A stretch of 61,065 nt of DNA, taken from positions 1 through 61,065 of IMG/VR virus record IMGVR_UViG_3300048015_000019, one strand, 5' to 3'. The DNA is from a virus. The position numbers and the translations under genes are program-made. Shown piece after piece: positions 4,316 through 44,455 of this stretch (position 1 is its first letter; each line of letters opens with the position of its first letter). The notes under the pieces are model-generated. The model did no database searches. It saw only the letters and a list, made by a program, of their open reading frames with translations, and was not told the origin of the DNA.

Positions 4316-4327
4316 GGGCCGCCGGCC

Positions 4328-9093: not shown

Positions 9094-9106
9094 TCAGGAG
9101 AGCATC

Positions 9107-27434: not shown

Positions 27435-30400
27435 TGCCGCCGGACGGGTTTGATCTTGCGGCGGCGCTTGGGGCGTCGGCAGCGCCGTCTCAGCCTGATG
27501 CTGTGCCACAGACAACGGCGGCCCCAGCGACCGCGCCTGATCCGTCGCAGGTTCCGCAGCCGTTTCCCGGTGGAGGCGGTGTTTTGCCGGATGGGTCGGC
27601 CACGCATGACCCGGCCGTGTGGGCGCGCTGGCTGAATGATCTTGGGCCGGGCACGCAGGAGGGTGGCGCATGGGGCGCCAAGGTTTCTCCAGCGCCGCCA
27701 ACTGCCGGCGATTCCGTTGCGCCGTCGCCGGGGACGAATGCCACCGCGCTTGGCGCATCGGCACCGGCGCCAAAGGCCGCAAGTTCTGGCCCGGCACCTG
27801 GAGCCATGGCTGCCAAGGATTTTGACCTGGCGAGAGCGCTCGGCGCTGAACCCGCCATCAATCCGGCCCCGGTAGCCGTAGCCACAACGGCATCTGTGAC
27901 GGGGCAACCCGGCCAGAAACTGACCGGCGGTATGGCCAACCTAGCCGCGGGCGGCAATGAAGCGCTGGCAAGCACCCTGGGCATGCCGGTTGATCTCGCG
28001 ACCGGCGCACTGAACCTGCCGGCGCGCGCGATCAACGCGGTGGCGGGCACCAACCTGCCGATGATCACCAATCCGGTTGGCGGTCAGAACTGGTGGGAAT
28101 CGGCCATGGGTCTGATCGGCGCTGATCCGCGCAACGTGGCGGCGGACGGCCAAGGTGACAGGCTGATCAGGGGCATTGGAGCCGGCGCCGTGGGTGCCAT
28201 GCTGCCCATGGCACCAGCGCGGGCGGTCGCCTCTGGAGCGCTTGGTGCTGGCGAATTAGCGCAAGGCGTGGCCAGTGCGCTTGGTAGCGGGTCCATGGCC
28301 GGGAATGCCGCCATGGGCGCGACATCTGGATACATCGGTCAGGCGGCAGAGGACGCGACGACAGATCCGCGGTGGAAGCCGCTTGCCAACATGCTCGGCC
28401 AAGTCGCCGGCGGTGCAGGCGCAGCGTTGACCGGGGCAGGTCTCAGTGGCGCCTATCGCGCTGCCACCGGTGCGGCTGGGCGGCTGGCCGAGACGCTGCC
28501 GATCGGCGCCAAGACGTCGCTGCTGGACGATACTGGCGCACCTGTGATCGGCACGGACGGCCAGCCTGTCATGATGACGCAGGGCCAAGCGCAGGCGGCA
28601 ACCCGCGGCGTTGCGCAGGCCGCCGGCATGTCCGCGCCCGATTTGGCGGCAAGCATCCCGACAGAGGCGCCTGCCGTGCTGGGCGACCGTCCAACCGTGG
28701 GGCAGCTCACGGGCAACATGCGGGTGCTTGGGCTGGAGCGAAAGCTGAAGACGTTGAACCGGGAGCCGTTCAACGAACGCGAGGCGTCGAACAACACCGC
28801 CCGCACGGCAGCGCTGGCTGATCTCTCGCACCCGGACACGCAAGGGGACGCTGCCGGGCAGTTCTTCGTGAACACCTTGCAGAAAATCGACGAGGCTGGC
28901 GCGGCGCGCGAGGCAGCCGCGGGGCGGGCGGCGCAGGCGGCCACATCTGGGCTTGGCGGCACGGCATCGGCGGCTGAGCTCGGGCAGGCCATGCGCGGCC
29001 ATGTCGAGCAGAGGTTTGCGCCGGTGATGCAGACGGCAGACAGGGCGGCCCAAGAAGCGGAACGGCGCGTCGGCGCCACGGTTGCGGCAGTCGGTGGCGA
29101 GCGGGTCGGCACGCCGGCGGCCACGGCATCGGAGCAAATCGGGGCCGAGACGAGGGCTGCGCTGGATGAGGCTCATCGGGCTGACGATGCGCGCATTGCT
29201 CGTCTGTTTGATGCCGTGGATCCAGACAAGAAGCTGGCACTGTCGTTGCAGAACTATCGTGCCGCGGCCAAACAGATGCGCGACGAGATCCTGCCCGGTG
29301 GCAGTGGAGGCGTGAGTCCGTCCGAGGAAGCCGTGATCTCGGCCGCGGAAAAGGCGCCCCGTGTGCAGACATTTGCTTGGGTGCAGCAGGAACGGAAGGC
29401 GATCAACAACTATGCCGCCATGGCGCGTCGGGCGGGTGACAACAACGCGGCTCGGCGTCTTGAGACTGTGCGTCGTGGGTTGGATGCCGATATTGATGCG
29501 GCCGTGGCGGATCAGGTTCGCCAGGAGGCGCCGTTTGTGGTATCGGGGCAGATCCTTGAAGGCCAGTCCATGCTCGGCAGGTTGGCGGAAGCGGCCAACG
29601 CTCCGCAGGTTGGTAGCCACGTGTTTACGCCCAGCGGGCAGCGCGTCGAGGTAAGCTATCGATTGGCGGATGCGTCGAAGCTGACGACATCGCACACGGC
29701 AGACATGCGGGTAAATCCGGACTTTCCACCGGAGCTGCAGCCGCGCGACCGGACAAAAATTCACAGCGAGCAGCAGATCAACAGCATAGCGAATGATCTT
29801 CAGCCTGGGCAGTTAGGAGCTTCTGCGTCGGTAAACGAGGGCGCTCCTATTATTGGGCCTGATGGCGTGGTGGAGTCTGGCAACGGCCGCATGCTGGCGA
29901 TCCGGCGAGCCTATGCGCAGAATGGGGAGTCGGCAGAGCGTTATCGGGTGTGGCTGCAAAGTCAGGGTTACAACACCGAGGGTATGGCGGAGCCGGTGCT
30001 TGTGCGGCAGCGTGAGACGCCATTGACGCCGGAGCAGCGTGCGCGGTTCACCGAGGATGCTGCTGCACCGACGGGTCTGACGCTTTCGGCGGGTGAGCAG
30101 GCGGCGGTGGATGCGCGCAGGATGTCGGACGACACGCTGATGCTTTACCGTGGCGGCGATTCGCATGAGGCAGAAAACCGGGATTTTGTGCGGGCATTTG
30201 CAACCGACGTGACGGCGCCCGGGCAAGCAAACAATTTCTTTACATCCGAAGGTGGCATCTCGCTGGATGGTCAGCGGCGAGTGCAAGCCGCGTTGCTGTC
30301 GAATGCCTATCAGAACCCAGACCTAGTGTCATCGCTGATTGAGTCAGGCGATCCATCGATTAAGGCGTTTGGTGGAGCGTTGATGGATGCGGCTGGGCCA

Positions 30401-32515
30401 GTTGGTCGGTTGGAGGCGGCGATTCGGGCGGGTGATGCGAACGCCGCAAATTCCGTGTCTGGTGATCTGGTGGCGGCGGCGCAAATGGTGGCCGATGCGC
30501 GGCGGCGGCGGATATCGCTGGGCGAATTGGTTGCGCAGCAGGACGCATTTGCAAAGCGGAACCCGGAGGCCGAGAACCTGCTGCGAGCAGCGTATGGGGA
30601 CAATTTTGACCAGCGGCTTTCGCGGGCGCGGCTGGCTGATATCTTGACTGAATACGCACGGATTGCTGGACAGCAGGGTGCCGGACCAGGCATGTTTGGG
30701 GACGCTCTCACGCGGGAGCAAATCCTCAGCAGGGCGATTGAGAAATATGGGACCAACGCTCAGCGCACCAGCGCAGCCGCCGATGCGGGGCGATCCGGTG
30801 AAAAAGTTGCTTCTGGGATACGCAACGGAGAAATCGGGTCTGAAGCACAGCGACTTGGCGATGGTGCGGCAGGGGCGGCGCCTTCAGGCGGAGGCGGTGG
30901 CGGAAAGGGCCGCAGAGCAGTTGGCGGCGGAGTCCAAGCCGAAACCGTAGGCGATCGCCCTCAGATGAGGGTGATGCCTGATCTTGCGCTCGAGCCCAAC
31001 CTGACCCAATCCGACCGCGATGCCATGCGCTTGGCCAACTCGGAATTTGCCAAGCACCAGGGCATTTTTGCTGAAGGTGCAATCGCCGACATCCTGGAAA
31101 AGAACCCGCGCAACGGCGGCCGGTTCGAGATGCCAGATGCTCGCGTGGTCGAGAAGCTGTTTCCCGGCGGCACGATGGAAGCGAAGAACGCGCACGCGCT
31201 GGTGGCTGCCGTGGGTCAGGAGCGGGCATCGCAGGTAGCCGGCGACGCTCTGGCGTTCAACCTGCGCTCGTATGCCGCTCGTGATGGCGCATTCGACAGC
31301 AAGCGCCTGTCAGACTGGATGGCGCGGCATTCCGAGGCGCTGACCGTGTTTCCGGAGCTGCGCCAGCGGTTTGGGACGCTCCAGCGCGCTCAGCAGACCT
31401 TGGACGGCATTCGGGATGCGCGTGCGCAGCTCGAAAAGCTGAATCCGATCAAGCTTGGCTCGACGAACGCGGATGTGGCCGCGCAATATTGGCGGCCGGG
31501 ACCGCAGGGCACCGAGGCCGTGCAGCGGTTCGCGCGAGACGCGGGCCCGCAAGCCGCGCAGGTGCTGCATGATGCCGCGGCGTCGTCGCTGCGCCAGTCG
31601 TTCAAGAACGGGGAGTTTTCCGAAACGACATTCCAGAGCTGGAAAAAGTCGTTCGGGCCGGCGCTGGCAGAGTTGCCAGCCGATGTGCGCGCGAAGTTCG
31701 ACACGTTTGCGTCGGCTCAGCGCGATCTGGCCGAGGCGGCAGCGGCGCGCAAGGCGGCGGTGGACGAGTATCAGAAGGGCGTGGCTCAGTTCTACCTTGG
31801 GAAAGATCCTCAAAAGGCCGTCGAATCAGTGATGGGGAGCGCGAACCCTCAGTTGAACGCGCTCCGGCTGATGCAGGCGACTGCGGGTGACAAGGCAGCG
31901 CAGGACGGCATTCGGAAGAACGTCGCCGACTGGCTGATTGCCAAGACCAAGAGCACGGCTGAAGCGGGCACGACCGGCGACAAGAAGATCGCCGGCGGAG
32001 TTTTTCAGCGGACAATCAGCAATCCCAAGATTGCAGCCGCGCTGGAGCGCGTGTTCACCCCGGATCAGATGGAGGCGATTCGCGCGGTTGGCGCCAGCAT
32101 TGCCCGGCAAGATCGATCAATCAACGCCACGGCGATCGCTGGAAGCCCCGGCACTGCGGCCGATCTGCATGCTGTGGGTAGCCATGGCAACAGCAGCTTC
32201 GTGGATCTGTTCTTGGGTGCGGGTCTGGGCGAGGCCGCGGCACACTTGTCGGGTGCAGGCGGCGTCGTGGGAACGGCCATGGGCGCCGCTGGCGTGGCCG
32301 GGGCCCATGCCTTGCGCATGATGCGGGCGGACGGCCTGACGACGGTGCAGGACATCCAACGCGCCATCGTGCTGAACCCTGAGCTTGCGCGCGTGATGCT
32401 GGCCAAGGTGCCGGTCAGCGAGAACGTGCCGATCATGCGCAAGCTCAGTGCCGCGTTGGCAAACTTGGCGACGTCTGGTGTGTCGCGAAATGCGAACGGC
32501 GACCCACGCCCCTAA
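27434..32515 (+). CDS. Giant (1693 aa) ejection / polyvalent-like protein with a ParB/DdrB-type domain
   Basis: LQPRDRTKIHSEQQINSIANDLQPGQLG...EGAPIIGPDGVVESGNGRMLAIRRAY at about 29738-29915. Its size and position match T7 gp16 / P22 gp16 analogues. Confidence 0.65.
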   Translation: MPPDGFDLAAALGASAAPSQPDAVPQTTAAPATAPDPSQVPQPFPGGGGVLPDGSATHDPAVWARWLNDLGPGTQEGGAWGAKVSPAPPTAGDSVAPSPGTNATALGASAPAPKAASSGPAPGAMAAKDFDLARALGAEPAINPAPVAVATTASVTGQPGQKLTGGMANLAAGGNEALASTLGMPVDLATGALNLPARAINAVAGTNLPMITNPVGGQNWWESAMGLIGADPRNVAADGQGDRLIRGIGAGAVGAMLPMAPARAVASGALGAGELAQGVASALGSGSMAGNAAMGATSGYIGQAAEDATTDPRWKPLANMLGQVAGGAGAALTGAGLSGAYRAATGAAGRLAETLPIGAKTSLLDDTGAPVIGTDGQPVMMTQGQAQAATRGVAQAAGMSAPDLAASIPTEAPAVLGDRPTVGQLTGNMRVLGLERKLKTLNREPFNEREASNNTARTAALADLSHPDTQGDAAGQFFVNTLQKIDEAGAAREAAAGRAAQAATSGLGGTASAAELGQAMRGHVEQRFAPVMQTADRAAQEAERRVGATVAAVGGERVGTPAATASEQIGAETRAALDEAHRADDARIARLFDAVDPDKKLALSLQNYRAAAKQMRDEILPGGSGGVSPSEEAVISAAEKAPRVQTFAWVQQERKAINNYAAMARRAGDNNAARRLETVRRGLDADIDAAVADQVRQEAPFVVSGQILEGQSMLGRLAEAANAPQVGSHVFTPSGQRVEVSYRLADASKLTTSHTADMRVNPDFPPELQPRDRTKIHSEQQINSIANDLQPGQLGASASVNEGAPIIGPDGVVESGNGRMLAIRRAYAQNGESAERYRVWLQSQGYNTEGMAEPVLVRQRETPLTPEQRARFTEDAAAPTGLTLSAGEQAAVDARRMSDDTLMLYRGGDSHEAENRDFVRAFATDVTAPGQANNFFTSEGGISLDGQRRVQAALLSNAYQNPDLVSSLIESGDPSIKAFGGALMDAAGPVGRLEAAIRAGDANAANSVSGDLVAAAQMVADARRRRISLGELVAQQDAFAKRNPEAENLLRAAYGDNFDQRLSRARLADILTEYARIAGQQGAGPGMFGDALTREQILSRAIEKYGTNAQRTSAAADAGRSGEKVASGIRNGEIGSEAQRLGDGAAGAAPSGGGGGGKGRRAVGGGVQAETVGDRPQMRVMPDLALEPNLTQSDRDAMRLANSEFAKHQGIFAEGAIADILEKNPRNGGRFEMPDARVVEKLFPGGTMEAKNAHALVAAVGQERASQVAGDALAFNLRSYAARDGAFDSKRLSDWMARHSEALTVFPELRQRFGTLQRAQQTLDGIRDARAQLEKLNPIKLGSTNADVAAQYWRPGPQGTEAVQRFARDAGPQAAQVLHDAAASSLRQSFKNGEFSETTFQSWKKSFGPALAELPADVRAKFDTFASAQRDLAEAAAARKAAVDEYQKGVAQFYLGKDPQKAVESVMGSANPQLNALRLMQATAGDKAAQDGIRKNVADWLIAKTKSTAEAGTTGDKKIAGGVFQRTISNPKIAAALERVFTPDQMEAIRAVGASIARQDRSINATAIAGSPGTAADLHAVGSHGNSSFVDLFLGAGLGEAAAHLSGAGGVVGTAMGAAGVAGAHALRMMRADGLTTVQDIQRAIVLNPELARVMLAKVPVSENVPIMRKLSAALANLATSGVSRNANGDPRP

Positions 32516-32517
32516 TC

Positions 32518-32573
32518 CAATCCTCGACGCCCCGCCCGATCTGCGCTAGTATTGGGTATCGGCACAGGCACAC
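32518..32573 (+). promoter_or_regulatory. Conserved late-operon element, copy B
   Basis: CAATCCTCGACGCC (32518-32531), then GCGCTA, then ATCGGCACAGGCACAC (32558-32573). Confidence 0.55.
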
Positions 32574-32600
32574 GCCGTCTCTCTTGCTTCTGGAGGACGC

Positions 32601-32636
32601 ATGCTTGGCAGCCCGATTGCGGTCGCTTGCCTATGA
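32601..32636 (+). CDS. 11-codon leader mini-ORF (MLGSPIAVACL) coupled by ATGA to the tail-collar gene
   Basis: Strong GGAGG RBS 6 nt upstream. Its TGA overlaps ATG 32633, which has no RBS of its own. Confidence 0.4.
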   Translation: MLGSPIAVACL

Positions 32637-33517
32637 GCGGCACCCGTTACACCACACCAAACGCATTCGACGTTGATCCGAGCGGCGCTCCGTATGCTGG
32701 CGGCCAGCTGTTTTTCTATGCGTCAGGCACCAGCACGCCGCTTGACGTTTTCTCGGATATCGGACTGACGCAGCCGATTTTGCAGCCGGTGACGGCCGAT
32801 TCTGGTGGCCATTTCGGGTCGATCTTCCTGCAGTCGCAGGCCTACAAGGTGGTGTTCTGTTCGGCTCCGGTTGCGCCCGCGACGGTCGGGCCGCAGGTCT
32901 GGACGTTTGACCCTGTTGGACAAGAAGCGGTCGGTTCCAACGCGGGCCTGCTCGGTGAAATTCGGGCGTTTGCCGGGCCGACGACGCCTTCGTTGTGGCT
33001 GTCTTGCTATGGCCAGGCCATCAGCCGCACGACCTATTCCGCGCTGTTCGCCGTGATTGGGACTGCCTGGGGTTCTGGTGACGGATCGACGACATTCAAT
33101 GTGCCGGACCTGCGCGGCCGCGCGCTGTTCGGCCGCGACAACATGGGCGGCACCGCAGCATCGCGGCTCACGGCTGCCGTGTCTGGCGTCGCCGGCACGC
33201 AGCTGGGCTCGACCGGTGGCGACCAGTCACTGCAGGCGCATGCGCATGGCGTGACCGATCCGACGCATACGCACGCGGTCACCGACCCGACCCATTCGCA
33301 CACAATTGGGCTGGGGTTCGCAGCGTCAAATGGTGGGAGTTACTCATTCAAGCCGGCTGGTGGTGGAACGTCGCTGCAGACCACTTCAAACGCCGCGACC
33401 GGCATCTCGATTGTTGCGGCTTCCACCAACGTCACCGTGAACAGCGCTGGAAATGGCCAAGCGCAGAACGTGCCGCCGGCCGCCGTCGTGAACTGGATCA
33501 TCTATGCGGGAGTCTGA
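32633..33517 (+). CDS. Tail fibre with a phage tail-collar domain
   Basis: GEIRAFAGPTTPSLWLSCYGQAISRTTYSALFAVIGTAWGSGDGSTTFNVPDLRGR is the Collar/MdpB signature. HAHGVTDPTHTHAVTDPTHSHT repeats. Confidence 0.85.
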   Translation: MSGTRYTTPNAFDVDPSGAPYAGGQLFFYASGTSTPLDVFSDIGLTQPILQPVTADSGGHFGSIFLQSQAYKVVFCSAPVAPATVGPQVWTFDPVGQEAVGSNAGLLGEIRAFAGPTTPSLWLSCYGQAISRTTYSALFAVIGTAWGSGDGSTTFNVPDLRGRALFGRDNMGGTAASRLTAAVSGVAGTQLGSTGGDQSLQAHAHGVTDPTHTHAVTDPTHSHTIGLGFAASNGGSYSFKPAGGGTSLQTTSNAATGISIVAASTNVTVNSAGNGQAQNVPPAAVVNWIIYAGV

Positions 33518-33518
33518 C

Positions 33519-33995
33519 ATGCGGATCGCTTTTGGTTTGGGGCTCGTGCTCTGGTGTGCGGCGGTGCCGGCGCTGGCACAAAAGTTGGATCCTTTGACGG
33601 GGATCATGCTGACGATCCCGGTGGGGCCGGGCGGGAGTGGGACTGGGGCTCAGCAAATTCCATCCAGCACCCACGGCTTAGGCTACATCTCGCTGGCGGC
33701 CAACACCTCCACGGCGCTGTCATCACTTACGCCGGGGCCGAATAGCGGTTCACTCGCGTTTCCGCTCACGACGCAGGCGATCACGCTGCAGGTTGTGTCG
33801 ATCAACACCAACACCGCCAGTCTGTGGCTTTGTCAGCTTGGCGGCACGTGTGTGGTTCCGACATTGGGGGCGCCAGCAGGCGCGACCGAAATCACGACGC
33901 CAACGGAGGCAGCCTCTTTTTCGGTTTCAGCCGCGCAGAGTGCATCGCCGACGATCGTTTCTTCTCAAGCCTTGTTGATCGAGGTGATCTGGTAA
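33519..33995 (+). CDS. Exported hypothetical protein (Sec signal)
   Basis: MRIAFGLGLVLWCAAVPALA|QK. GGGAG RBS. Confidence 0.6.
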   Translation: MRIAFGLGLVLWCAAVPALAQKLDPLTGIMLTIPVGPGGSGTGAQQIPSSTHGLGYISLAANTSTALSSLTPGPNSGSLAFPLTTQAITLQVVSINTNTASLWLCQLGGTCVVPTLGAPAGATEITTPTEAASFSVSAAQSASPTIVSSQALLIEVIW

Positions 33996-34102
33996 TGCGC
34001 CCCATCCCCCTCGCCGCCCTCGCGGCGCTCTGGTCCGGTGTGGCTCTCGCGCAGGGCGCAGCGGGGTCGGCGTGGGTAGCAACGGAGAACAGCCATGATT
34101 GA
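33995..34102 (+). CDS. 35-aa ORF: signal peptide plus a 15-residue tail
   Basis: TAATG-coupled. MRPIPLAALAALWSGVALA|QGAAGSAWVATENSHD. Overlaps the next start by 8 nt. Confidence 0.35.
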   Translation: MRPIPLAALAALWSGVALAQGAAGSAWVATENSHD

Positions 34103-35531
34103 TCGTCGCGGGCTTATGGCTGGCGCTGGCGCGGCAGCGCTCGGCGTATCCCCGGCTTTTGCGCAGATGGCGGGTGGGCCAGTTTCGTGGACGCCCGCAC
34201 CTTATCGCCCACCCGGAAAACTTCTAACGCATATCGGCCGCAAGCTCTGCGTCGTTGGCGATAGCTACGCTGGCCAGAACGGAAACTTCGTCAGCGGCAC
34301 GAACCTAAATAATCTGGGCGCGGTGACGCTTCTCAACATGTTCGCCGGCTGGCCCTTCGTTTTCACCCCATATGACGTATTCGCGACCAATGGTGGTCAG
34401 TTGACGCAGATCATCAGCTACCTACCGGCGATCGTGGCCGGCGGCTACGACTTCTGCGTTGTCCAGGGCTGCCATAACGATTGTTTCAATGGGCGGTCTC
34501 TGTCCGCCATCCAGGCTGATTACAAGACAATCGCCTCGACGTTGCTGGCTGCCAACATTATCCCCATCATCGGCGCCACATCTCCCATGTCGTCTATCTT
34601 GGGCGGCCCAGGCTCGCCTCCGGGTCCGACGCTGGCGCAGTGCGTGCTGCTCGCGCAGAGCACGAACTCTTGGAAACGGAGCTGGTGTGAAGCCAATCAC
34701 CTGCCGTTCTGGGATTGGTACACACCTGCCGTCGATCTCAGCCCCGGTTCGGCCGGCGCATATCCGGTTGGGTATAGCGGTGATCTCGTGCATCCGGGCA
34801 AACGGTCCAACATGGCCGTAGCAAAGCAAGGTCTTGTCGATCTGGCTGCAATCATCCCGCCGCCACTCTCGCGTACAGAAGCTGTGGCGCTGGATATGAT
34901 CGACACGACCTACAACCCTTACGGCAACTTCATGCCGGGCTCTGGGTTGAACTGGTCGGGTGGCGGCACGATTCAAACCGGATCATTTGGCAGCGGCAGC
35001 GTTGCCGCTGGTATGACTTTCGCGAAGACCTATGGCACGGCGACCGCCGGGAACGTCACGTGTAGTTTGGTGCCCGCGTCAGACGGCCTGGGCGATTGGC
35101 AGCAATTCTCGTTCAGCGGCCCTTGGACTGCAGGCAGCAATCAGGAGAAATGGCTGTTCTTCTGCTTCATAAACCAAGCGAACTACGCGCCTGGAGATGT
35201 GTTTGAGAGCGACATTGAGGTATCGGTCGATGCAAATAGCCCTTTCTCTGAGGTTGGGCTGTTCTGCGCCGAGCAGAATAAAGATAATTCGCAGGTCAAG
35301 TGCAATTTGATCGGGCCTGATTCTGAGCCAGGCGTGACCTACGCCTGGTCCGGTGTGATGCGGACGTCACCATTAACCGTGCCTGCAAACAGCGCGACCG
35401 GCTCCGCAGCCCGCATCCTGTTCCCGCAATGCGAGATGATCTTCGACGCCAGCGCCGCCACGGGCAACCCGAACTTTTCGGGGACTGTCTCGTTCCGCCG
35501 CTGGCGGGTCTCCAAAGTGCCCCCATCGTAG
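34095..35531 (+). CDS. Twin-arginine-exported SGNH/GDSL hydrolase with a C-terminal beta-rich domain
   Basis: MIDRRGLMAGAGAAALGVSPAFA|Q is a Tat signal. SGNH blocks: VVGDSYAG, GCHNDC and GDLVHPG. Confidence 0.75.
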   Translation: MIDRRGLMAGAGAAALGVSPAFAQMAGGPVSWTPAPYRPPGKLLTHIGRKLCVVGDSYAGQNGNFVSGTNLNNLGAVTLLNMFAGWPFVFTPYDVFATNGGQLTQIISYLPAIVAGGYDFCVVQGCHNDCFNGRSLSAIQADYKTIASTLLAANIIPIIGATSPMSSILGGPGSPPGPTLAQCVLLAQSTNSWKRSWCEANHLPFWDWYTPAVDLSPGSAGAYPVGYSGDLVHPGKRSNMAVAKQGLVDLAAIIPPPLSRTEAVALDMIDTTYNPYGNFMPGSGLNWSGGGTIQTGSFGSGSVAAGMTFAKTYGTATAGNVTCSLVPASDGLGDWQQFSFSGPWTAGSNQEKWLFFCFINQANYAPGDVFESDIEVSVDANSPFSEVGLFCAEQNKDNSQVKCNLIGPDSEPGVTYAWSGVMRTSPLTVPANSATGSAARILFPQCEMIFDASAATGNPNFSGTVSFRRWRVSKVPPS

Positions 35532-35540
35532 GAGCGTGCC

Positions 35541-36485
35541 ATGTCATTTCGTAAAGCTCTGCTGATTACAGCCTTTGCCCTCCTGACAGGCAACGCACAT
35601 GCGGACTATTGGGCTCCGCAGTCGATCGCCAATCAGCCCATTGCTCAATCAACCTGCCAGACCTTCACCGCCAGCGGCACTTGGACCAAGCTCGGCACAT
35701 CGCATGTCGTCTATGTGTGGGGCGTTGGCGGCGGCGGCGGCGGCAACGGTGCGGTGATGACCGCCAGGCAATCCGGCTCTGGCGGTGGTGGTGGCGGCGG
35801 TGCCGAGATCGCGCACTACTTCCCTCTGGCGTCGTCGCTTTCGTCCACGGTAGCCGTCACAATCGGTGCGGGCGGCGCGTCTGGTCAAGCCGGGGGCATC
35901 ACGTCCTTCGGCGCGATGCAATGGTCCGCTGGCCAAGCAGGCGGGAGTGGCGCGGCGGGTGCGGTTTCTTCCGGCGGTAGCGGGGGAGGCACGCACGGCT
36001 TTCAAAATTACATCATTGCTGGCGCGAACGGCGGATCAGCCAGCGACGTTACTGTCCCGCTGCTGGGCGGCGGCGGTGGTGGGTCGTCTGCGGTGGGCCT
36101 TGCTTACGGGGCATCCCGCATCATCCTCGACGAAGCTGCATCTGGCGGGGGTGCGGGGGGCGGTTTCTCGTCGGGTGCCGCCACCGGCGCCGGTAGCGGG
36201 GGCTATCTCGTCGGTATTTCCTCGGGCGGCGTGCCAACCGGATCGCTGGGCAGCGGTTCGGCGGGCGGCGCTGGCGCAACAGCCGGAACCTATGGCGGCT
36301 TGTTTCCAGGCTGGGGTTCGACCGGGGGCGGCGGTGGGCAAGCCAATGCGGCTGGCAACGGCGGCGCTGGTGGCACGGGCGGCTTTCCGGGTGGCGGTGG
36401 TGGAGGCGGTGGCTCGTCCATCGGCGGCACAGCCGGTTTGGGCGGCACAGGCGGCAACGGGGAGGTTGTGGTATGTCAATGGTAA
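35541..36485 (+). CDS. Exported glycine-rich-domain protein
   Basis: MSFRKALLITAFALLTGNAHA|D. FTASGTWTKLGTSHVVYVWGVGGGGGG is the signature of the glycine-rich domain seen in phage fibre modules. Confidence 0.65.
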   Translation: MSFRKALLITAFALLTGNAHADYWAPQSIANQPIAQSTCQTFTASGTWTKLGTSHVVYVWGVGGGGGGNGAVMTARQSGSGGGGGGGAEIAHYFPLASSLSSTVAVTIGAGGASGQAGGITSFGAMQWSAGQAGGSGAAGAVSSGGSGGGTHGFQNYIIAGANGGSASDVTVPLLGGGGGGSSAVGLAYGASRIILDEAASGGGAGGGFSSGAATGAGSGGYLVGISSGGVPTGSLGSGSAGGAGATAGTYGGLFPGWGSTGGGGGQANAAGNGGAGGTGGFPGGGGGGGGSSIGGTAGLGGTGGNGEVVVCQW

Positions 36486-37048
36486 TCCGCAGCGCTTTGG
36501 CGCTCGCCGCGTTCCTGATCGCCAGCACGGCCCACGCCGCGCCCACGCGATACCTCGTTGTCTGCACCGCGCCATGCACCGCGCCTGACGGCACGACGCA
36601 GCCCGTCGGGACAGCGCTTAACCGCGTGCTGGCCGATCCGGCGCAGTTCAATCCTGGCGATGGGTTGTCGCTGGTTGCGGACGACGGCCGGGCGATCTAT
36701 GCGCCGCCCGCGCCGGCCATCACGCCGGCCCAGAGGGCTGCAGCCACCATCGCGGCTGGCGTGCAGATCACCAGCACCGGCACGCCAGCGCTCTCTGGCA
36801 CCTATCCGGCCGATCCGGCCACCACATCCGAGATCCAGGCCGAGATGATCTCGCTTTTGGTCAATGGCGTGTTCGCGGACGGGGCGACCACGGTGCAGTG
36901 GATCGATACCTCGGGCACGCCGCATACCTTCACGGCGCCGCAGTGGAAGTCGCTCGCGACCGCGATCGGGCAGTTCGTCGCGGCCTGGACCAAATACGGC
37001 CAGGGGCTGACGACGACCGCTCCCGCCAGCACGGCGACGATCCCATGA
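36473..37048 (+). CDS. Exported protein with a DUF4376-like C-terminus
   Basis: MSMVIRSALALAAFLIASTAHA|A. C-terminal QAEMISLLVNGVFADGATTVQWIDTSGTPHTFTAPQWKSLATAIGQFV. Confidence 0.55.
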   Translation: MSMVIRSALALAAFLIASTAHAAPTRYLVVCTAPCTAPDGTTQPVGTALNRVLADPAQFNPGDGLSLVADDGRAIYAPPAPAITPAQRAAATIAAGVQITSTGTPALSGTYPADPATTSEIQAEMISLLVNGVFADGATTVQWIDTSGTPHTFTAPQWKSLATAIGQFVAAWTKYGQGLTTTAPASTATIP

Positions 37049-37302
37049 CCTGCGGCGCGTGCCTGTTCGCGCGGCAACTGGCGCTGAACTGGCTCCTGGC
37101 GCTCGACCGGCTCGGCAACTGCGTCTTATTAGGCGATCCATCCGAGACGATCAGCCAGCGCCTCGGCCGCGCCGAGAACGCTGGAAACCGCATTGCTTGG
37201 GCGGTGTGCCGGGTGCTGAACGTCATCAACCCGGACCATTGCCAATGGAGCCTTGAACCCGGCCCGTCCATCGGCAAGCAACTGTGGAATTGGAACCCCT
37301 AA
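37045..37302 (+). CDS. Small Cys-containing conserved phage protein (function unknown)
   Basis: ATGA-coupled. LDRLGNCVLLGDPSETISQRLGRA...NPDHC resembles a widespread prophage family. Confidence 0.55.
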   Translation: MTCGACLFARQLALNWLLALDRLGNCVLLGDPSETISQRLGRAENAGNRIAWAVCRVLNVINPDHCQWSLEPGPSIGKQLWNWNP

Positions 37303-37366
37303 CCACCCCGACCCGCCGCACGAACGGCCGGGCCGTGACTGACCCAACCGACGAAAGGACGCCGGA

Positions 37367-37438
37367 ATGAGCTTTCGAGACGATGCGCCGAGACCTGCGC
37401 GCATGGAGAATCACGTTTTGCGTGTGAGGGGCGGATGA
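37367..37438 (+). CDS. 23-codon leader mini-ORF coupled by ATGA to the first lysis-region gene
   Basis: AAGGA RBS upstream. Its TGA overlaps ATG 37435. Confidence 0.35.
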   Translation: MSFRDDAPRPARMENHVLRVRGG

Positions 37439-37698
37439 CAGATCTCGAACAACAAGCACGGCACGACCGGGACATGACGGTGGGGCGCCTCGAAGGCCGG
37501 GTGGCGGCGCTCGAAGAACGGGTCAACCGGCGCGAAACGGCAGACGATCAGCGGTGGAAAGACCTGATCGCGTTGGTGAGCGACGTGCGCGACAGCGTGA
37601 CCGGGTGGAAAGCGCAGGAACGGCTTGTGCTGCTGGCCGGCGGCTGGGGCATGGGCGCGATTATGGCCTGGATTGGTCATGTGGTGCTGGGGAAATGA
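37435..37698 (+). CDS. Tail-anchored coiled-coil membrane protein (lysis-associated?)
   Basis: N-terminal heptad-like region followed by a C-terminal TM segment, LVLLAGGWGMGAIMAWIGHVVLG. Confidence 0.55.
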   Translation: MTDLEQQARHDRDMTVGRLEGRVAALEERVNRRETADDQRWKDLIALVSDVRDSVTGWKAQERLVLLAGGWGMGAIMAWIGHVVLGK

Positions 37699-37910
37699 AC
37701 CCGACCGCAGAACAAGTCTATGCGCTTGCTGAAGCGATGGAGCAATTGCTCGATGACATGGGGCCAGATCGGCAAAGCGTGTGCCTGGCCGCTAAAGCAA
37801 AGGCGCACATCGCCTATGAGCCTTTCCGAGAAATGATGGGTGACGAGATGCCAGAATGCTACATGCCAATGGCAGACGCGGAACGGATTATTCAAGAGTG
37901 TGGCGGATGA
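37695..37910 (+). CDS. Small acidic hypothetical protein
   Basis: ATGA-coupled on both sides. Confidence 0.55.
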   Translation: MNPTAEQVYALAEAMEQLLDDMGPDRQSVCLAAKAKAHIAYEPFREMMGDEMPECYMPMADAERIIQECGG

Positions 37911-38326
37911 GCCCGACCGACATTCTCGCCCGTACCATCTGGGGTGAAGCTCGCGGCGAACCATCCGGCGGGATGGAGGCTGTGGCCTGCGTCATCGTCA
38001 ACCGTGCGGCTAACCCCAGGTGGTGGGGCCACGACATCGCCAGCGTATGCCTGGCACCGTGGCAGTTCTCTTGCTGGAACGCCGACGACCCCAACCGATC
38101 AAAACTGATGGCTATCACCGAGGCAGACCCGCAGTTCACCGAGGCGCTGAACATCGCGGCCGCAGCCGTTGCTGGCGCGCTTCCTGACGCCACGAACGGC
38201 GCGGACAGCTATGCCGATCTCCGCGTGTGTCACCCGTCATGGGCAGCTTCGGCTGTGCCTGTGGCGAAGATTGGCAATCACACATTTTTCCGGCTCGAAA
38301 TTCCCGCGCCGGCAACTGGCCACTGA
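37907..38326 (+). CDS. Endolysin, SleB-type cell-wall hydrolase (Hydrolase_2)
   Basis: ARTIWGEARGEPSGGMEAVACVIVNR...PWQFSCWN. Confidence 0.85.
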   Translation: MSPTDILARTIWGEARGEPSGGMEAVACVIVNRAANPRWWGHDIASVCLAPWQFSCWNADDPNRSKLMAITEADPQFTEALNIAAAAVAGALPDATNGADSYADLRVCHPSWAASAVPVAKIGNHTFFRLEIPAPATGH

Positions 38327-38337
38327 AAGGAACCACC

Positions 38338-38580
38338 ATGGACCCGAATGCTTTTGCTGCCCTGATCTCCGCCCTTGCCGGCACGCCTCTGGCGCCCATC
38401 GCCATGTATGCCCCAATTCTCATTGCCGTGTGCGCCGTCCTCGCCGCCGTGCTGCCGGTGCCTGCCGCCGGTAGCCCGTGGGTGCCTGCGCGGAAGCTGC
38501 TCGATCTGGTGGCGTTCAATATCGGTTCGGCGCGCAATGTGCCGAAGGCCGATCCGGCGGCCCCGGCGAAGGCGGCATGA
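38338..38580 (+). CDS. Holin (putative, two TM segments)
   Basis: AAAGGAA RBS. AFAALISALAGTPLAPIAMYAPILIAVCAVLAAVLPV followed by a charged C-terminus. Adjacent to the endolysin. Confidence 0.6.
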   Translation: MDPNAFAALISALAGTPLAPIAMYAPILIAVCAVLAAVLPVPAAGSPWVPARKLLDLVAFNIGSARNVPKADPAAPAKAA

Positions 38581-38831
38581 ACATGACCCATGTCTATGAA
38601 GGCAAACCCGACGGCCGTCAGTCCGACAAGGTTGATGAACCAGTGTCCCGCTTCCGTCCCAAATATCGCGCTCTGACCGAAAGCGAAAAGGCCCTGCACG
38701 ACGCCATCAAAGCCAAAGCTGCGGAACTTGAGGCGCTGTTCGAAACCGTCAAACCCGGCCGGTATCGGTCGCTTGGCATCACCGCACTGGAAGAATCCGT
38801 CATGTGGACGGTGAAGGAACTCACGTCATGA
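38577..38831 (+). CDS. Small helical protein, possible Acb2/Tad1-hairpin-like nucleotide sponge (speculative)
   Basis: YRALTESEKALHDAIKAKAAELEALFETVKPGRYRSLGITALEESVMWTVKELT fits my recollection of the Y..L...E...h..ik...l......R..sLA.T.LEE..MW..K pattern. Confidence 0.35.
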   Translation: MNMTHVYEGKPDGRQSDKVDEPVSRFRPKYRALTESEKALHDAIKAKAAELEALFETVKPGRYRSLGITALEESVMWTVKELTS

Positions 38832-39292
38832 TGCGCAACATCCTCCTCGCCACCATGCTCACGCTTGGCGTCGCCGCCTGCGCCTCCACGCCCTCGCAGA
38901 TCGCCACAGACGCCGCCACGATCGACGCGGGACTGTCCGCCGAGCTGCCCGCCATCGCCCGCCTGGCCGGCATCAACGCGGACACGGTGACGCGGTTGCA
39001 GACGGACCTTGCCACGGTCCATGCGGCTGCCACGGCGCTCGCTGCTGTCACTGTGGGGCAGGCGCCGGTCAGCGCAGTGCAGATCCTCGTGACGGCCGTG
39101 AATGACGCGGTGGCGCTCGCCACGCAGCCGCCGCTCAACGCGCTGATCCCGCCGCAGATCGAGACCGTGTTCGTCGCGGCCCATGCGCTGCTGCCGGCTA
39201 TCGAAGCTGCGGCCGGGCTGTCTGCGGCCACGACCGGCACAACGATGGCGCCGGATGCCGCGCGGCTGGTCCTGATGAGCGCCGCACACTGA
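38828..39292 (+). CDS. Lipoprotein (helical, 154 aa; possible atypical spanin component)
   Basis: Lipobox LTLGVAAC at residues 11-18. ATGA-coupled. Confidence 0.6.
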   Translation: MMRNILLATMLTLGVAACASTPSQIATDAATIDAGLSAELPAIARLAGINADTVTRLQTDLATVHAAATALAAVTVGQAPVSAVQILVTAVNDAVALATQPPLNALIPPQIETVFVAAHALLPAIEAAAGLSAATTGTTMAPDAARLVLMSAAH

Positions 39293-40047
39293 TGGCCGAT
39301 CACAGCGCCATGCGGCTCGGTCTCACGCTGAGCGGCCCCACGCCCGAGGTGCCGCATTTGGATCGGCTCATGGCGCTGGCCTCGCCGCCCGTCCCGCCGG
39401 ATGTGGTGGACTGGACGCACGGGATTGATGGTTGGCCCATGCTGCGCAACGACGAGCTGGGCGATTGCACCGTCGCCGGTCTGCTCCACTACGCCCAAGC
39501 CGCGTCACGCTGGCGGGATGGCACGGGCCTGCGAGCGACTGACGCGGACGCCGAGGCTGGCTACCGCGCCGTCGGCTGGGACGGGCAGGGCGAGGGCAGC
39601 GGCGCCCGCCTGGTGGACGTGATGACCTGCTGGCGTGATGTGGGTTTCGCGTGTGCCGGCAGCGTGGACCGCATCGACAGCTTCATCCGCCTCGCCCCGG
39701 CTTCGCTAAAAACGGCGCTGTGGATCGCTGGCCCGCTCATGCTCGGCCTGTCGCTGCCCATCGCCGCGCAGGTGCAGGACGTGTGGCCCACACCGGCATC
39801 GCTGGACGGCAAAAACACGCCGGACGGTTGGGGTGGCCACTGCGTGCTGCTCGCCGGGCTCGATGCCGATGGACGCGCCAAGTTGGTGACATGGGGCGGT
39901 GTCAAGATCGCAACGGCCGGATGGCTGGCGGCCTATTTGACGGAGGCATGGGCGCCAGTGCATCCCCTCTGGATCGCGCGGGGGCATACGCCGTCAGGGT
40001 GGCTGGTGGATGCTTTGGAGCGAGAGATGGCGGTGTTGGGAAATTGA
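39292..40047 (+). CDS. Papain-like cysteine peptidase-fold protein
   Basis: NDELGDCTVAG (candidate Cys nucleophile) and GWGGHCVLLAG (candidate His). Confidence 0.5.
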   Translation: MADHSAMRLGLTLSGPTPEVPHLDRLMALASPPVPPDVVDWTHGIDGWPMLRNDELGDCTVAGLLHYAQAASRWRDGTGLRATDADAEAGYRAVGWDGQGEGSGARLVDVMTCWRDVGFACAGSVDRIDSFIRLAPASLKTALWIAGPLMLGLSLPIAAQVQDVWPTPASLDGKNTPDGWGGHCVLLAGLDADGRAKLVTWGGVKIATAGWLAAYLTEAWAPVHPLWIARGHTPSGWLVDALEREMAVLGN

Positions 40048-40307
40048 AGGCGCTCACGTATTGCGCCCAATTCGGCCTGCATCGCGACGGGCAAGGTATC
40101 AGGTCCAAATAGATGCTGCGGGCCGGGTTTGATACCGGCTGTTGGCCCCGAATATGCCCACCGATGGAGTTGAACCAAGGATACTGCCAACCACTCTGGC
40201 CGCTGAGCTATCCAACGACATACTCGACTGCGTTTCCTTCAACGCCGCCGCAGCCCAACCGTTTTACCATGTGCCGGCATGGAAGCAAGCTGGGGTTTGA
40301 GGATCGT

Positions 40308-40934
40308 TCAGCGAACCCAACGCGCGACGAGCAAATACGAGTGGTTTTTGCGTGCGTGTTGCTGGGTCTGGTGGCGCATGAGGGGGGTGACGGTCTGCCG
40401 TAAAACGAACTCGTCTTCGACGCGGAATCCGATCATCGGCAGGACGGTCGTAAGCTGCACATGCGTCATCTTCTGCACATGGTCGGCAACGGCGGGTTGA
40501 CACTTGATGAACAGCACGCCTTTGCGTTTCAGCACGCGGCGGGCTTCCAAGATGCCGGCGAGATAGAGCGCCATCACGTTTTCATGGCACATATTCCCGC
40601 CGTTGTCGGCGCGGGATGTCTTGTAGCACTTCTCGACGCTGGCCTTCACGTTGCCGCCGCCGTTCATGTATGGCGGGTCGAATACCAGCGCGTCGAAGCT
40701 GCCGTCTTCGTAGGGCAACCGCGTGAAATCCACGCCAGTTTGCAGATCGGACGGGACGAGATCGAACTCGCCAGGCGGCACGTTCCGCCAGAACACGCCC
40801 TTGCCGTAGGTCACATCGGCCACCCGCGCGCCCGCCGCCACATACATGCGCAGGGCGATTGGGAACAGGTCCGCGTTCGTGCCCTCGTAGCAGGTCAGGA
40901 CCGGGTTAAGCTTGGGCTCAACTGCGTCAAACAT
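40308..40934 (-). CDS. DNA methyltransferase (DPPY; N6-adenine or N4-cytosine), orphan
   Basis: VADVTYGKGVFW (AdoMet-binding-like) and FDALVFDPPYMNGGG. Confidence 0.75.
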   Translation of the reverse strand: MFDAVEPKLNPVLTCYEGTNADLFPIALRMYVAAGARVADVTYGKGVFWRNVPPGEFDLVPSDLQTGVDFTRLPYEDGSFDALVFDPPYMNGGGNVKASVEKCYKTSRADNGGNMCHENVMALYLAGILEARRVLKRKGVLFIKCQPAVADHVQKMTHVQLTTVLPMIGFRVEDEFVLRQTVTPLMRHQTQQHARKNHSYLLVARWVR

Positions 40935-44441: not shown

Positions 44442-44455
44442 TCCAAAGCCTCGAC

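Follow-up and report, generated by a model that had tools for sequence, protein, structure and literature searches.

A late-operon cassette of signal-bearing esterase- and fibre-tip-like genes in a temperate, short-tailed phage, with a possible role in receptor interference

Described systems related to the locus

T5 Llp and phi80/N15 Cor are phage-encoded, Sec-exported superinfection-exclusion lipoproteins whose genes lie next to that of the receptor-binding protein; within the envelope they target the receptor used by the phage itself, thereby blocking superinfection and protecting progeny from debris (PMC9586334). The locus described here is similar in that apparently exported phage proteins are encoded beside a receptor-binding gene, with an envelope effect that is presumed. 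On the other hand, Llp and Cor are single small lipoproteins with a lipobox, bind to an outer-membrane protein and show no relation to receptor-binding proteins, whereas our cassette lacks a lipobox, comprises 5-6 genes including an enzyme and a fibre-tip domain, and belongs to the late operon.

Two kinds of virion protein resemble individual cassette products. G7C gp63.1, Moo19 gp82, B2 gp48/49 and SGNH fibres of Klebsiella prophages share an SGNH fold and a beta-sandwich with the third product, ORF3, and related tailspikes have been shown to possess esterase activity and to depend on O-antigen modification (PMC11654681, PMC13123978). ORF3 also has the catalytic Ser, Gly, Asn and His in common with these enzymes, and its gene is likewise found beside fibre genes. 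However, the virion enzymes carry an N-terminal virion-attachment domain and act from outside at adsorption, while in ORF3 a twin-arginine signal stands in its place, and the protein would work from inside the envelope. Concerning the Pam3 gp24 fibre/gp25 chaperone pair and the S16 gp38 adhesin (PMC9608196), the same TNF-like and glycine-rich distal domain is predicted in ORF4. The Pam3 authors hold the fibre tip responsible for host-receptor recognition, the fibre docks on the baseplate via an N-terminal helix, neither member of the pair has a signal, and release of the chaperone before particle maturation was inferred (PMC9608196). By gene position, ORF4 and ORF5 resemble this pair in having the small partner gene immediately downstream. 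They differ in that both partners bear signals and the fibre shaft is missing.

Lambda Lom, Bor and other exported proteins of prophage morons are also encoded in or next to the tail-fibre region of temperate phages. Morons come with a promoter and a terminator of their own, and lysogens express them, whereas the cassette genes are translationally coupled to a fibre gene. A parallel in concept only is receptor interference by retroviral Env, where the virus's own receptor-recognition module, delivered by the secretory route, engages the receptor and renders the cell refractory; this is a eukaryotic case without implied homology, and a comparable effect of the cassette is conjectural. We found no published description of such an exported cassette.

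Gene arrangement and export signals

The window, that is the whole 61,065-nucleotide stretch analysed, is a genome of 63% G+C with an integrase gene at 43218-44462. Its features relevant here are as follows.

32552..33517, + strand: tail-collar fibre gene (PF07484 Collar, 2.5e-23; 20 tail PHROGs match)
33519..33995, + strand: ORF1, 158 aa, Sec-type signal MRIAFGLGLVLWCAAVPALA followed by Q
33995..34102, + strand: ORF2, 35 aa, signal-like MRPIPLAALAALWSGVALA followed by Q
34095..35531, + strand: ORF3, 478 aa, twin-arginine signal MIDRRGLMAGAGAAALGVSPAFA followed by Q
35541..36485, + strand: ORF4, 314 aa, Sec-type signal MSFRKALLITAFALLTGNAHA followed by D
36473..37048, + strand: ORF5, 191 aa, Sec-type signal MSMVIRSALALAAFLIASTAHA followed by A
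37045..37302, + strand: ORF6, 85 aa, Cys-rich, without signal, ATGA overlap with ORF5
37435..39292, + strand: downstream lysis region (context), five genes
37435-37698, + strand: TM protein of the lysis region
37856-38326, + strand: Hydrolase_2 endolysin (PF07486, 5.9e-19)
38338-38580, + strand: holin-like protein of the lysis region
38577-38831, + strand: Acb2/Tad1-like protein (PF24729, 1.2e-15)
38828-39292, + strand: lipoprotein (lipobox LGVAAC)

The phage is temperate, short-tailed and only loosely P22-like; the P22-like label of the original prediction holds in this loose sense, but the Hc3/gp10-type hub is nearest to those of Rhodoferax, Xanthomonas and Vibrio podophages (~30% identity). 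The collar gene product, whose true start is likely the ATG near 32630 (MSGTRYTT...), is a virion fibre without a signal peptide, encoded upstream of the cassette. Its stop (33517) and the ATG of ORF1 (33519) are separated by 1 nt. The following junctions are a TAATG stop-start overlap (ORF1/ORF2), an 8-nt overlap (ORF2/ORF3), a 9-nt gap (ORF3/ORF4) and a 13-nt overlap (ORF4/ORF5), and a GGAG/GAGG-type ribosome-binding site precedes every cassette start. The ORFs are thus translationally coupled on the + strand, also to the collar fibre gene, which bears out the expected co-orientation and tight packing (overlaps or gaps of at most 9 nt). As to the extent of the block, the five ORFs predicted do exist at the coordinates and with the N-termini given in the original prediction, but ORF2 has merely 35 aa, and a sixth coupled gene, starting within the ATGA at 37045, belongs to it too.

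No promoter or terminator was found within the block, nor a sigma-70-like promoter or terminator inside or in front of it, and there is thus no sign of expression in lysogens. This bears on lysogenic conversion or another benefit to the host, where the exported esterase and adhesins would alter the surface of the lysogen or scavenge substrates, leading for instance to a new serotype, to adhesion, to biofilms or to the release of nutrients, with effects on phage infection being secondary. Prophage NanS-p esterases provide an analogy, the phage is temperate with an integrase, and PHROG places phrog_6102, the family matched by ORF3, in the category 'moron, auxiliary metabolic gene and host takeover'. 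Moreover, in the phage contig L006 an exported pair occupies a moron-like place, heading an operon beside a divergent region, and bacteria themselves have fibre-like adhesins exported by Sec, the fold matches including a Bdellovibrio fibre protein (8okh). Nevertheless, with neither promoter nor terminator, with all junctions coupled to the fibre gene, and with a GC3 in keeping with that of the neighbouring tail genes, we regard a host-benefit role as improbable.

Signals were evaluated with a home-made, von Heijne-style heuristic requiring a positively charged n-region, an h-region free of charges and small residues at positions -3 and -1. The five ORFs all passed, as anticipated from their N-termini, each of which has an n/h/c layout ending in AxA; cleavage is predicted after residues 20, 19, 23, 21 and 22 of ORF1 to ORF5, respectively. 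The h-region of ORF3 is the least hydrophobic (1.77, versus 2.06-2.77 in the other four), as would suit a Tat signal. ORF3 matched no TAT-signal model in scans of Pfam and NCBIfam. Its twin arginine (R4 and R5) does not vary among the three closest homologs (P0001, P0002 and P0003), and RR is also seen in P0011 and P0056. Among the GC3-filtered gene calls, 69 in the window, only four passed, namely the four adjacent cassette ORFs of at least 50 aa. Across all fetched loci the pass rate was 5.3% (42/793), so that, as a rough estimate, four signal-bearing genes in a row would arise by chance with a probability of the order of 1e-3 or less. Elsewhere in the window, the lipoprotein at 38828 alone has a strong signal.

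Ala/Leu-rich N-termini of a genome with 63% G+C might mimic signals, all the more when the predictor is home-made. We find such an artefact scarcely credible, because no other of the 69 genes called in the same genome passed, cassette-type signals are conserved in homologs on contigs of 42-60% G+C (L006, L004, L001 and L022), and homologs with and without the N-terminal extension differ by precisely that segment. In diverged relatives the signal is kept as a feature while its sequence drifts.

Esterase and fibre-tip modules behind the signals

Behind its signal, ORF3 has a disordered linker reaching residue ~45, followed by an SGNH esterase domain (~50-250) and, at the C-terminus, a beta-sandwich (~290-474). 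Its esterase assignment, made in the original prediction, was sustained by phrog_6102 (5e-18) and by a family profile against SGNH enzymes in the PDB (1.9e-23), with PF13472 at 29.6 bits, under the 32.9 cut-off. G55-D56-S57, G100, N128-D129, D230 and H233 are conserved across 70 homologs. With the AF2 model (pLDDT 88), Foldseek retrieved carbohydrate esterases and the phage tailspike esterases Moo19 gp82 and B2 gp48/49 from the PDB, and full-length phage 'GDSL lipase/esterase' proteins from BFVD (TMq 0.70-0.75). As modelled, ORF3 is an SGNH esterase with intact catalytic residues and a beta-sandwich, in the fold of phage GDSL lipases and tailspike esterases. Most of its SGNH relatives (130/151) lack a signal by the heuristic and appear tail-associated.

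The model of ORF4 (pLDDT 73) corresponds to a TNF-like and glycine-rich fibre tip behind a signal. The top Foldseek matches were the Bxb1 tail tip (9d93_Qa, 3.8e-7), the Pam3 fibre (7ypx, 4e-5) and the glycine-rich domain of ALK. Gly_rich_2 (PF21722) scored 18.2 bits, under the 24.3 cut-off, and the fold supports this predicted assignment; phrog_863 was matched at 1.3e-13. By the heuristic, 30 of 32 homologs have no signal, and these too appear tail-associated, the N-termini inspected being fibre-like; homologs with a signal are found in L004, L047 and L022.

ORF5 comprises an N-module (~23-78) containing CTAPC and a DUF4376 domain (86-171), which had also been foreseen and scored above its cut-off (PF14301, 34.5 versus 25 bits). 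By gene context it is a fibre-tip partner module fused to DUF4376. Its N-module is ~70% identical to P0005 and to an L047 protein, both signal-bearing. The DUF4376 half is 33-43% identical to a 175 aa protein of L047, to P0007 (L010) and to P0006, the first two being encoded directly 3' of a fibre gene. The canonical pair is seen in L048, where a collagen-repeat fibre with a glycine-rich tip is followed by the partner and neither has a signal, whereas in the window, L004 and L047 both tip and partner bear one. In these three loci the ORF5-type proteins have the signal in common, and strong conservation begins 2-5 residues past the predicted cut. The CxxxC pair is confined to exported partners, the signal-free L048 homolog having A and W at the two positions, which fits disulfide formation in the periplasm. 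Mature ORF1, ORF4 and ORF5 have exactly two Cys apiece (39 and 312 in ORF4). The domain types are therefore those of fibre or receptor-recognition modules, as the folds show for ORF3 and ORF4 and the gene context for the modules of ORF5.

Taking into account that the same domains serve on virions elsewhere, that the genes are located in the fibre region, and that the L004 homolog of ORF4 retains two fibre-shaft repeat motifs (GDNSxNxATTAxV) behind its signal, the products could be virion parts, with N-termini that are uncleaved membrane anchors or attachment helices, or with tips that fold and are oxidised in the periplasm and join particles only when lysis mixes the compartments. Against this, five different proteins have a complete n/h/c signal ending in AxA, one of them with RR, no N-terminal tail-attachment domain is left, and the AF2 models of ORF3 and ORF4 have detached or disordered N-termini. 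We know of no precedent for tail assembly of tailed phages outside the cytoplasm, and consider virion parts very unlikely. The window, L004 and L047 also encode fibre or tail proteins that lack a signal, suggesting an accessory role for the exported proteins, which would then not be the receptor-binding proteins themselves.

Recurrence and possible receptor interference

The comparative genomics proposed in the original prediction revealed that this genome is not alone in having the cassette, of which mosaic versions occur in at least five other phage contigs; the arrangement is shared by several that are unrelated. In L001, L047 and L022, 2-4 signal-bearing proteins of cassette types lie between fibre and lysis genes. 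Partial versions, differently placed, were found in L004, with an exported pair and an ORF6 homolog after a 1195-aa fibre, and in L006, with an exported small protein and an RR-bearing SGNH protein beside holin-like and lipoprotein genes. Such mosaic content is as expected for host-specificity genes.

We tentatively propose, with a probability of roughly 0.4, a non-virion accessory cassette of the late operon whose products bind or modify the phage's glycan receptor from the periplasm. Four products would be exported through Sec-type signals and the esterase through a Tat-type signal. Three would derive from distal, host-recognising fibre or tailspike modules, with a signal peptide in place of the virion-attachment N-terminus. 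In the periplasm they would meet the surface glycan (O-antigen, capsule or EPS) during its polymerisation and export; ORF3 would strip acyl groups from it, and ORF4, folded with its co-exported partner ORF5, would bind it as an adhesin. The infected or induced cell and its debris might then no longer present a usable receptor. If so, superinfection would be blocked and progeny spared loss on lysed cells. We infer actual export and cleavage, substrate, timing and phenotype, and homology and position suggest envelope or receptor remodelling. The run of signals, the fibre-pair origin, the esterase and fibre-tip homology and the mosaic recurrence favour receptor interference. On the contrary side, none of the cassette proteins is paralogous to the fibres of this phage, so they are not simple decoys of its receptor-binding domain, and PADLOC defence families gave no match in the cassette. 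Moreover, a periplasmic protein cannot reach receptor already on the surface, late-operon expression leaves little time for surface change, and ORF1 and ORF2 have no assignable function.

In addition, the cassette is next to lysis genes in most contexts, which is just as compatible with a role in lysis. Here the exported esterase and binders would prepare the envelope ahead of holin triggering. One possibility is that they O-deacetylate peptidoglycan in the manner of Ape1, letting a lytic transglycosylase or muramidase endolysin cut; another is that they loosen LPS or capsule for virion escape. The endolysins of the window and the compared loci are SleB-like Hydrolase_2 or GH108 enzymes, both kinds being hindered by MurNAc O-acetylation, and a peptidoglycan O-acetyl esterase would be just such an SGNH enzyme located in the periplasm. 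In the window, L001, L006, L022 and L047 the cassette, or part of it, immediately precedes lysis genes or sits among them, and co-transcription with late genes would be expected from the lack of an internal promoter or terminator. However, a fibre-then-lysis gene order is common anyway, and the L004 exported pair lies between the fibre gene and a virion structural-protein gene, not by lysis genes. ORF3 is closest in fold to polysaccharide esterases and to modules of tailspikes or fibres rather than to peptidoglycan esterases; a glycine-rich fibre-tip adhesin with its partner has no obvious role in lysis, and the mosaic content resembles host-range genes. A lysis or egress accessory is the foremost alternative to receptor interference, though unlikely.

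Mature ORF1 (138 aa, with Cys 105 and 111 only) is an orphan, matching nothing in Pfam, PHROG, NCBIfam or PADLOC; hhalign alignments with its positional analogs in L001, L047, L006 and L022 are limited to the signal peptide. ORF2 is probably a real gene, having the TAATG overlap, a GAGGTGA ribosome-binding site and a GC3 of 0.78. It is the weakest of the five, since its predicted mature peptide has 16 aa, no homolog was found, and L001 lacks it, the upstream gene there directly abutting the SGNH gene. ORF6 matches phrog_34710 (5.4e-10) and phrog_3342 (6e-10), both annotated as of unknown function, and its L004 homolog sits behind the same gene pair.

A translationally coupled cassette with predicted export signals

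The five ORFs of the cassette were confirmed at 33519-37048, with the N-termini quoted in the original prediction, and a sixth ORF that had not been included there was found to follow them. Together with the gene directly upstream, the region reads as follows.

32552-33517 (+), tail-collar fibre gene (PF07484, 2.5e-23)
33519-33995 (+), ORF1, orphan with predicted Sec-type signal
33995-34102 (+), ORF2, 35 aa, predicted Sec-type signal
34095-35531 (+), ORF3, predicted SGNH esterase with twin-arginine signal
35541-36485 (+), ORF4, glycine-rich protein with predicted Sec-type signal
36473-37048 (+), ORF5, DUF4376 protein with predicted Sec-type signal
37045-37302 (+), ORF6, 85 aa

The cassette forms a single translational unit behind the collar fibre gene. 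The collar gene stops at 33517 and the ATG of ORF1 lies at 33519, the ORF1/ORF2 junction is TAATG, ORF2 and ORF3 overlap by 8 nt, ORF3 and ORF4 are separated by 9 nt, ORF4 and ORF5 overlap by 13 nt, and ORF6 starts in an ATGA overlap. Every start is preceded by a Shine-Dalgarno-like sequence. ORF2, without relatives, is the weakest member of the cassette, but is probably a genuine gene in view of its coupling, its ribosome-binding site and its GC3. From 32000 to 40500, a sigma-70 consensus scan gave no promoter-like site on the plus strand, and no convincing terminator was found, the counts not exceeding the shuffle expectation. With all junctions coupled, and neither a sigma-70-like promoter nor a terminator of its own found there, the cassette does not have the structure of a moron. 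Lysogenic conversion is possible, the phage being temperate, although a separate promoter was not seen here.

Signal peptides were called with a rule-based test of the von Heijne type, which recognizes a Sec signal by positive charge in the n-region, by a hydrophobic h-region of some 10 residues, none of them charged, and by small amino acids at -3/-1 (AxA), 15-35 residues from the start. ORF1, ORF2, ORF4 and ORF5 were predicted to carry such signals, with cleavage after residues 20, 19, 21 and 22, respectively, and with the twin-arginine signal of ORF3 the test accepted all five N-termini, in agreement with the claim that each bears an export signal. Only 4 of the 69 genes in the window passed, and these were the four adjacent cassette ORFs of at least 50 aa; over all loci retrieved, 42 of 793 genes did so. 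The clustering of signal-bearing genes in the window is beyond chance. None of the five N-termini contains a lipobox as found in Llp/Cor-type lipoproteins, and the PHROG matches included none to Llp/Cor-like proteins. No PADLOC family matched ORF1-ORF6, and no NCBIfam family matched ORF1, ORF3, ORF4, ORF5 or ORF6. In ORF3, ORF4 and ORF5 the predicted signal peptide is followed by the distal domain within 2-45 residues, and an N-terminal docking domain for attachment to the virion was not found. A virion role of the cassette proteins would require that the signals stay uncleaved or that assembly takes place outside the cytoplasm.

The window, one whole contig of 61,065 nt, belongs to a temperate short-tailed phage. 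Its remainder includes the following genes, along with a 1255-aa tail protein.

4328-5803, terminase
6199-8508, portal
11298-12206, major head protein
19881-21515, P22 gp10-type hub (Hc3)
25155-27434 and 27434-32515, two very large proteins, possibly ejection proteins
43218-44462 (-), tyrosine integrase

The earlier description of the phage as P22-like can be kept only as a loose label. The best matches of Hc3, in Rhodoferax, Xanthomonas, Vibrio and Pseudomonas podophages, are only about 30% identical. At the DNA level, 50,697 phage records gave only short matches, in the collar and endolysin genes, and these led to phages of Proteobacteria. As both the hub and these DNA matches point in this direction, the host is probably Gram-negative. 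A Gram-positive host is unlikely, Hc3 and the endolysin and collar genes being closest to those of Proteobacteria phages. In exact look-ups, no record was found for proteins of the window. The right end of the window encodes a C-5 cytosine DNA methylase (59468-60868, +) and a DEAD/ResIII helicase (57665-59083, +), and no tRNA genes were found in the window. GC3 is 0.67-0.78 for the 1693-aa protein, the collar fibre and ORF1-ORF4 (27434-36485), 0.78-0.83 in the sampled head and tail genes (11298-12206 and 15085-18852) and 0.84 in ORF5, and the GC skew is strongly positive at 29-31 kb. The GC3 and GC skew of the fibre/cassette region fit a mosaic origin.

Predicted esterase and fibre-tip modules and a putative chaperone-like module of the cassette

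The N-terminus of ORF3 contains DRRGLM and was assigned by the rule-based test to the Tat type, which calls for RR and subsequent hydrophobic residues where the n- and h-regions meet, an h-region of low hydrophobicity and cleavage at AxA. None of the three nearest homologs (P0001, P0002 and P0003) deviates from R4 and R5, RR also occurs in the homologs P0011 and P0056, and of the five cassette ORFs this one has the lowest h-region score, 1.77. Pfam and NCBIfam scans at E values up to 0.1 returned no TAT-signal model for ORF3; such models, of which we take PF10518 and TIGR01409 to be the curated profiles, are short and weak.

A profile search of 1.84 billion representatives gave 1105 relatives of ORF3. 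The four blocks that define SGNH enzymes (catalytic Ser in GDS, Gly, Asn in GxND, and Asp-x-x-His) correspond to G55-D56-S57, G100, N128-D129 and D230/H233, whose conservation across 70 homologs is complete or at least 90%. The family profile matches SGNH enzymes in the PDB at 1.9e-23, and PF13472 scored 29.6 bits on ORF3 itself, under its cut-off of 32.9. The AlphaFold model (pLDDT 88) is disordered to about residue 45, followed by an SGNH domain and a C-terminal beta-sandwich. Blocks, profile and predicted fold agree in identifying ORF3 as an SGNH/GDSL hydrolase. In the PDB its fold resembles carbohydrate esterases (Bacteroides acylhydrolases, sialate O-acetylesterase, acetyl-xylan and acetyl-mannan esterases) and also the phage tailspikes Moo19 gp82 and B2 gp48/49. 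Esterase activity has been measured for these tailspikes, and infection depends on O-antigen modifications (PMC11654681). Prophages commonly encode SGNH receptor-binding proteins predicted to deacetylate capsule or LPS (PMC13123978). In BFVD, the full length of ORF3 could be aligned (TMq 0.70-0.75) with proteins named "GDSL lipase/esterase" from phages of Pseudomonas, Caulobacter, Rhodococcus and Gordonia.

The heuristic found no signal in 130 of 151 SGNH family members, comprising the best profile-search matches and three query sequences. The closest clade of ORF3 is signal-bearing (P0002, P0011, P0012, P0013, P0016 and P0019 by the heuristic; P0003 by the RR motif only). A tblastn search with ORF3 gave only four weak matches in Pseudomonas phages, at about 24% identity, and scans of viral_contigs, genome_contigs and metagenome_contigs with patterns back-translated from the SGNH alignment gave none.

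ORF4 matches tail PHROG 863 and, weakly, Pfam Gly_rich_2 (PF21722; 18.2 against a cut-off of 24.3), a family for which the homolog in contig L004 scores above the cut-off (31.9). By sequence, no match to ORF4 was found in the PDB. Foldseek with its model (pLDDT 73) returned the Bxb1 tail tip (9d93_Qa, 3.8e-7), the fibre of cyanophage Pam3 (7ypx, 4.1e-5), 7yfw (1.3e-3) and then the ALK glycine-rich domain, at TM-scores of only 0.37-0.47. A TNF-like plus glycine-rich fibre tip is recognized by a beta-sandwich whose GGGGxGG-type loops form a polyglycine lattice, with a fold match to Pam3 gp24 or ALK; by the fold match of this model, ORF4 is predicted to be such a tip. The Pam3 fibre ends distally in this unit, to which the authors ascribe host receptor recognition and which requires a chaperone encoded just downstream (PMC9608196). 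By the heuristic, 30 of 32 sequence homologs of ORF4 are without a signal, and the N-termini inspected are fibre-like.

ORF5 consists of an N-module, about 70% identical to the database homolog P0005 and to one protein of contig L047, and, at residues 86-171, a DUF4376 domain (PF14301, 34.5 bits; cut-off 25). Alignments to the DUF4376 half were obtained for proteins encoded directly 3' of a fibre gene in L047 and in contig L010, where the gene follows a Mu-type baseplate and fibre. A Tfa-like chaperone is characterized by a gene directly downstream of that for the fibre tip, by tip binding and by absence from the mature virion; as to position, ORF5-type genes lie directly 3' of the glycine-rich genes in the window, L004, L047 and L048. 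PDB searches by sequence gave only chance-level antibody matches, and tblastn gave none. ORF6 has five Cys with an N-terminal CxxC and is ATGA-coupled to ORF5; it matches phrog_3342 and phrog_34710, and a homolog lies 3' of the exported pair in L004.

ORF1 is an orphan in the same place as small exported proteins of other loci. Homology with those of L001, L047, L006 and L022 was rejected, neither BLASTP nor hhalign detecting similarity, and the neighbours in L001 were ruled out as homologs of ORF1, ORF4, ORF5 or the collar fibre.

Recurrence of the cassette and comparison with signal-free pairs

Comparison with other contigs showed a cassette that is mosaic and recurs, in at least five loci.

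Signal-bearing proteins in the loci compared with the window
L001: 157-aa protein, RR-bearing SGNH protein (59% identical to ORF3), 120-aa protein; 3' of a fibre gene, with a GH26-like gene and then lysis genes behind
L047: 149-aa protein (homolog of that in L001), glycine-rich protein, ORF5-type partner; 3' of a fibre gene with its DUF4376 gene and 5' of lysis genes
L022: 189-aa protein, glycine-rich protein, fibre-like protein, beta-helix-like protein with KR Tat-like signal; directly 5' of endolysin
L004: glycine-rich protein, ORF5-type partner, then a signal-free ORF6 homolog; after a 1195-aa fibre
L006 (SU10-like podophage): 134-aa protein, RR-bearing SGNH protein; adjoining holin-like and lipoprotein genes

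In the window, L004 and L047, signal-free fibre or tail proteins are present as well, so the exported proteins are accessories there. Since lysis genes adjoin the cassette in most contexts, an accessory function in lysis or egress is the main rival to the reading that we favour, interference with the receptor inside the envelope. The 554-aa protein of L022 (5691-7355), directly upstream of the endolysin, reads as a beta-helix, tailspike/depolymerase-like protein with a long Tat-like N-terminus (…ARKRFLGAMALVAGAGFVSPAQA) and may be an exported depolymerase. In L001, a GH26-like protein without a signal (3725-4837; PF02156, 28.9 bits) is encoded between the exported and lysis genes.

The strongest evidence came from comparing contig L048 with the window, L004 and L047. 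L048 has the ordinary arrangement, a collagen-repeat fibre with a glycine-rich tip followed by the partner, the ORF5-type protein, both without a signal. In the other three, by contrast, both members of the glycine-rich/partner pair have predicted signal peptides, and the fibre shaft of the glycine-rich protein is shortened or absent. A CxxxC pair occurs only in the signal-bearing partners, the signal-free homolog having A and W at those positions, and conservation of the partners starts 2-5 residues past the predicted cleavage site. Mature ORF1, ORF4 and ORF5 contain exactly two cysteines each. It is difficult to account for signals acquired by both members of the pair, together with a new Cys pair, other than by proteins that function in the oxidizing periplasm.

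Proposed receptor interference and the neighbouring lysis region

Surface glycans are polymerized and modified at the periplasmic face. We favour interference with the receptor inside the envelope, inferring export, substrate and phenotype: the exported esterase and glycan-binding tip would edit or cap surface glycans at this face, which would leave infected or induced cells, and the debris from them, as poor receptors. Retroviral Env interference would follow the same logic, as would Llp of phage T5 (PMC9586334). Receptor interference is consistent with a cassette that varies in mosaic fashion, much as host-range genes do. The arguments against it are that a late-expressed cassette has little time to act, that glycan already displayed is out of reach for periplasmic proteins, and that none of the cassette proteins duplicates a fibre of this phage. 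For this last reason we abandoned an explanation as decoys of the phage's own receptor-binding domain.

In its most far-reaching form, the proposal is that temperate phages of one group have, more than once, redirected receptor-recognition proteins of their own kind (fibre-tip adhesin and chaperone, tailspike-type esterases, depolymerases) to the periplasm, the virion anchor being swapped for Sec/Tat signals. This would give a modular, host-specific receptor-interference system that edits or caps the surface glycan during its synthesis, a bacterial-virus counterpart of retroviral Env interference. We put the probability of this tentative reading at about 0.3. Exported phage proteins beside fibre genes (Llp, Cor, Lom) and esterase fibres are already known; in a limited literature search, we did not find a description of a multi-gene exported cassette of fibre-tip, chaperone and tailspike-esterase modules.

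Should the proteins be exported and target the receptor, they would represent a new modular route by which phages exclude competitors and protect progeny, with receptor-binding parts as building blocks instead of unrelated small lipoproteins. A virion receptor-binding protein could then not be assumed for every tail-fibre-like or depolymerase-like gene of a prophage, which bears on host-range prediction and on depolymerase mining of prophages. The cassette would also be a natural case in which a fibre tip and its chaperone fold in the periplasm, and a source of experimentally tractable enzymes and binders for host surface glycans. If the block serves lysis instead, the lysis of Gram-negative hosts would gain a step that preconditions the envelope.

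Further genes were noted in the lysis region. The window encodes within it an 84-aa protein (38577-38831, +) with an Acb2/Tad1 hairpin domain (PF24729, 1.2e-15). As the members of this family are sponges for cyclic-nucleotide immune signals, this is a candidate anti-CBASS or anti-Thoeris gene. A 251-aa protein (phrog_19005; 39292-40047, +, and L001 7358-8137), encoded 3' of a lipoprotein gene, shows two invariant motifs, ND-LGDCT and GGHC, suggestive of a papain-like Cys/His pair. Relatives with 26-36% identity came from 29 IMG/VR contigs and 6 genomes; the gene adjoins lysis genes in the contexts inspected (window, L001 and L022). The scan with this protein, through which L022 surfaced, gave distant relatives only, some in actinobacterial or acidobacterial MAGs, and did not indicate a host. 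The lipoprotein, Ala-rich, 150-170 aa in length and with a lipobox, follows a holin-like gene in four different phage contexts.

38828-39292 (+), lipoprotein in the window
6907-7374, lipoprotein in L001
9663-10121, lipoprotein in L006
10149-10622, lipoprotein in L047

It seems too big for a typical o-spanin; L047 encodes a separate small lipoprotein that is o-spanin-like (8877-9122).
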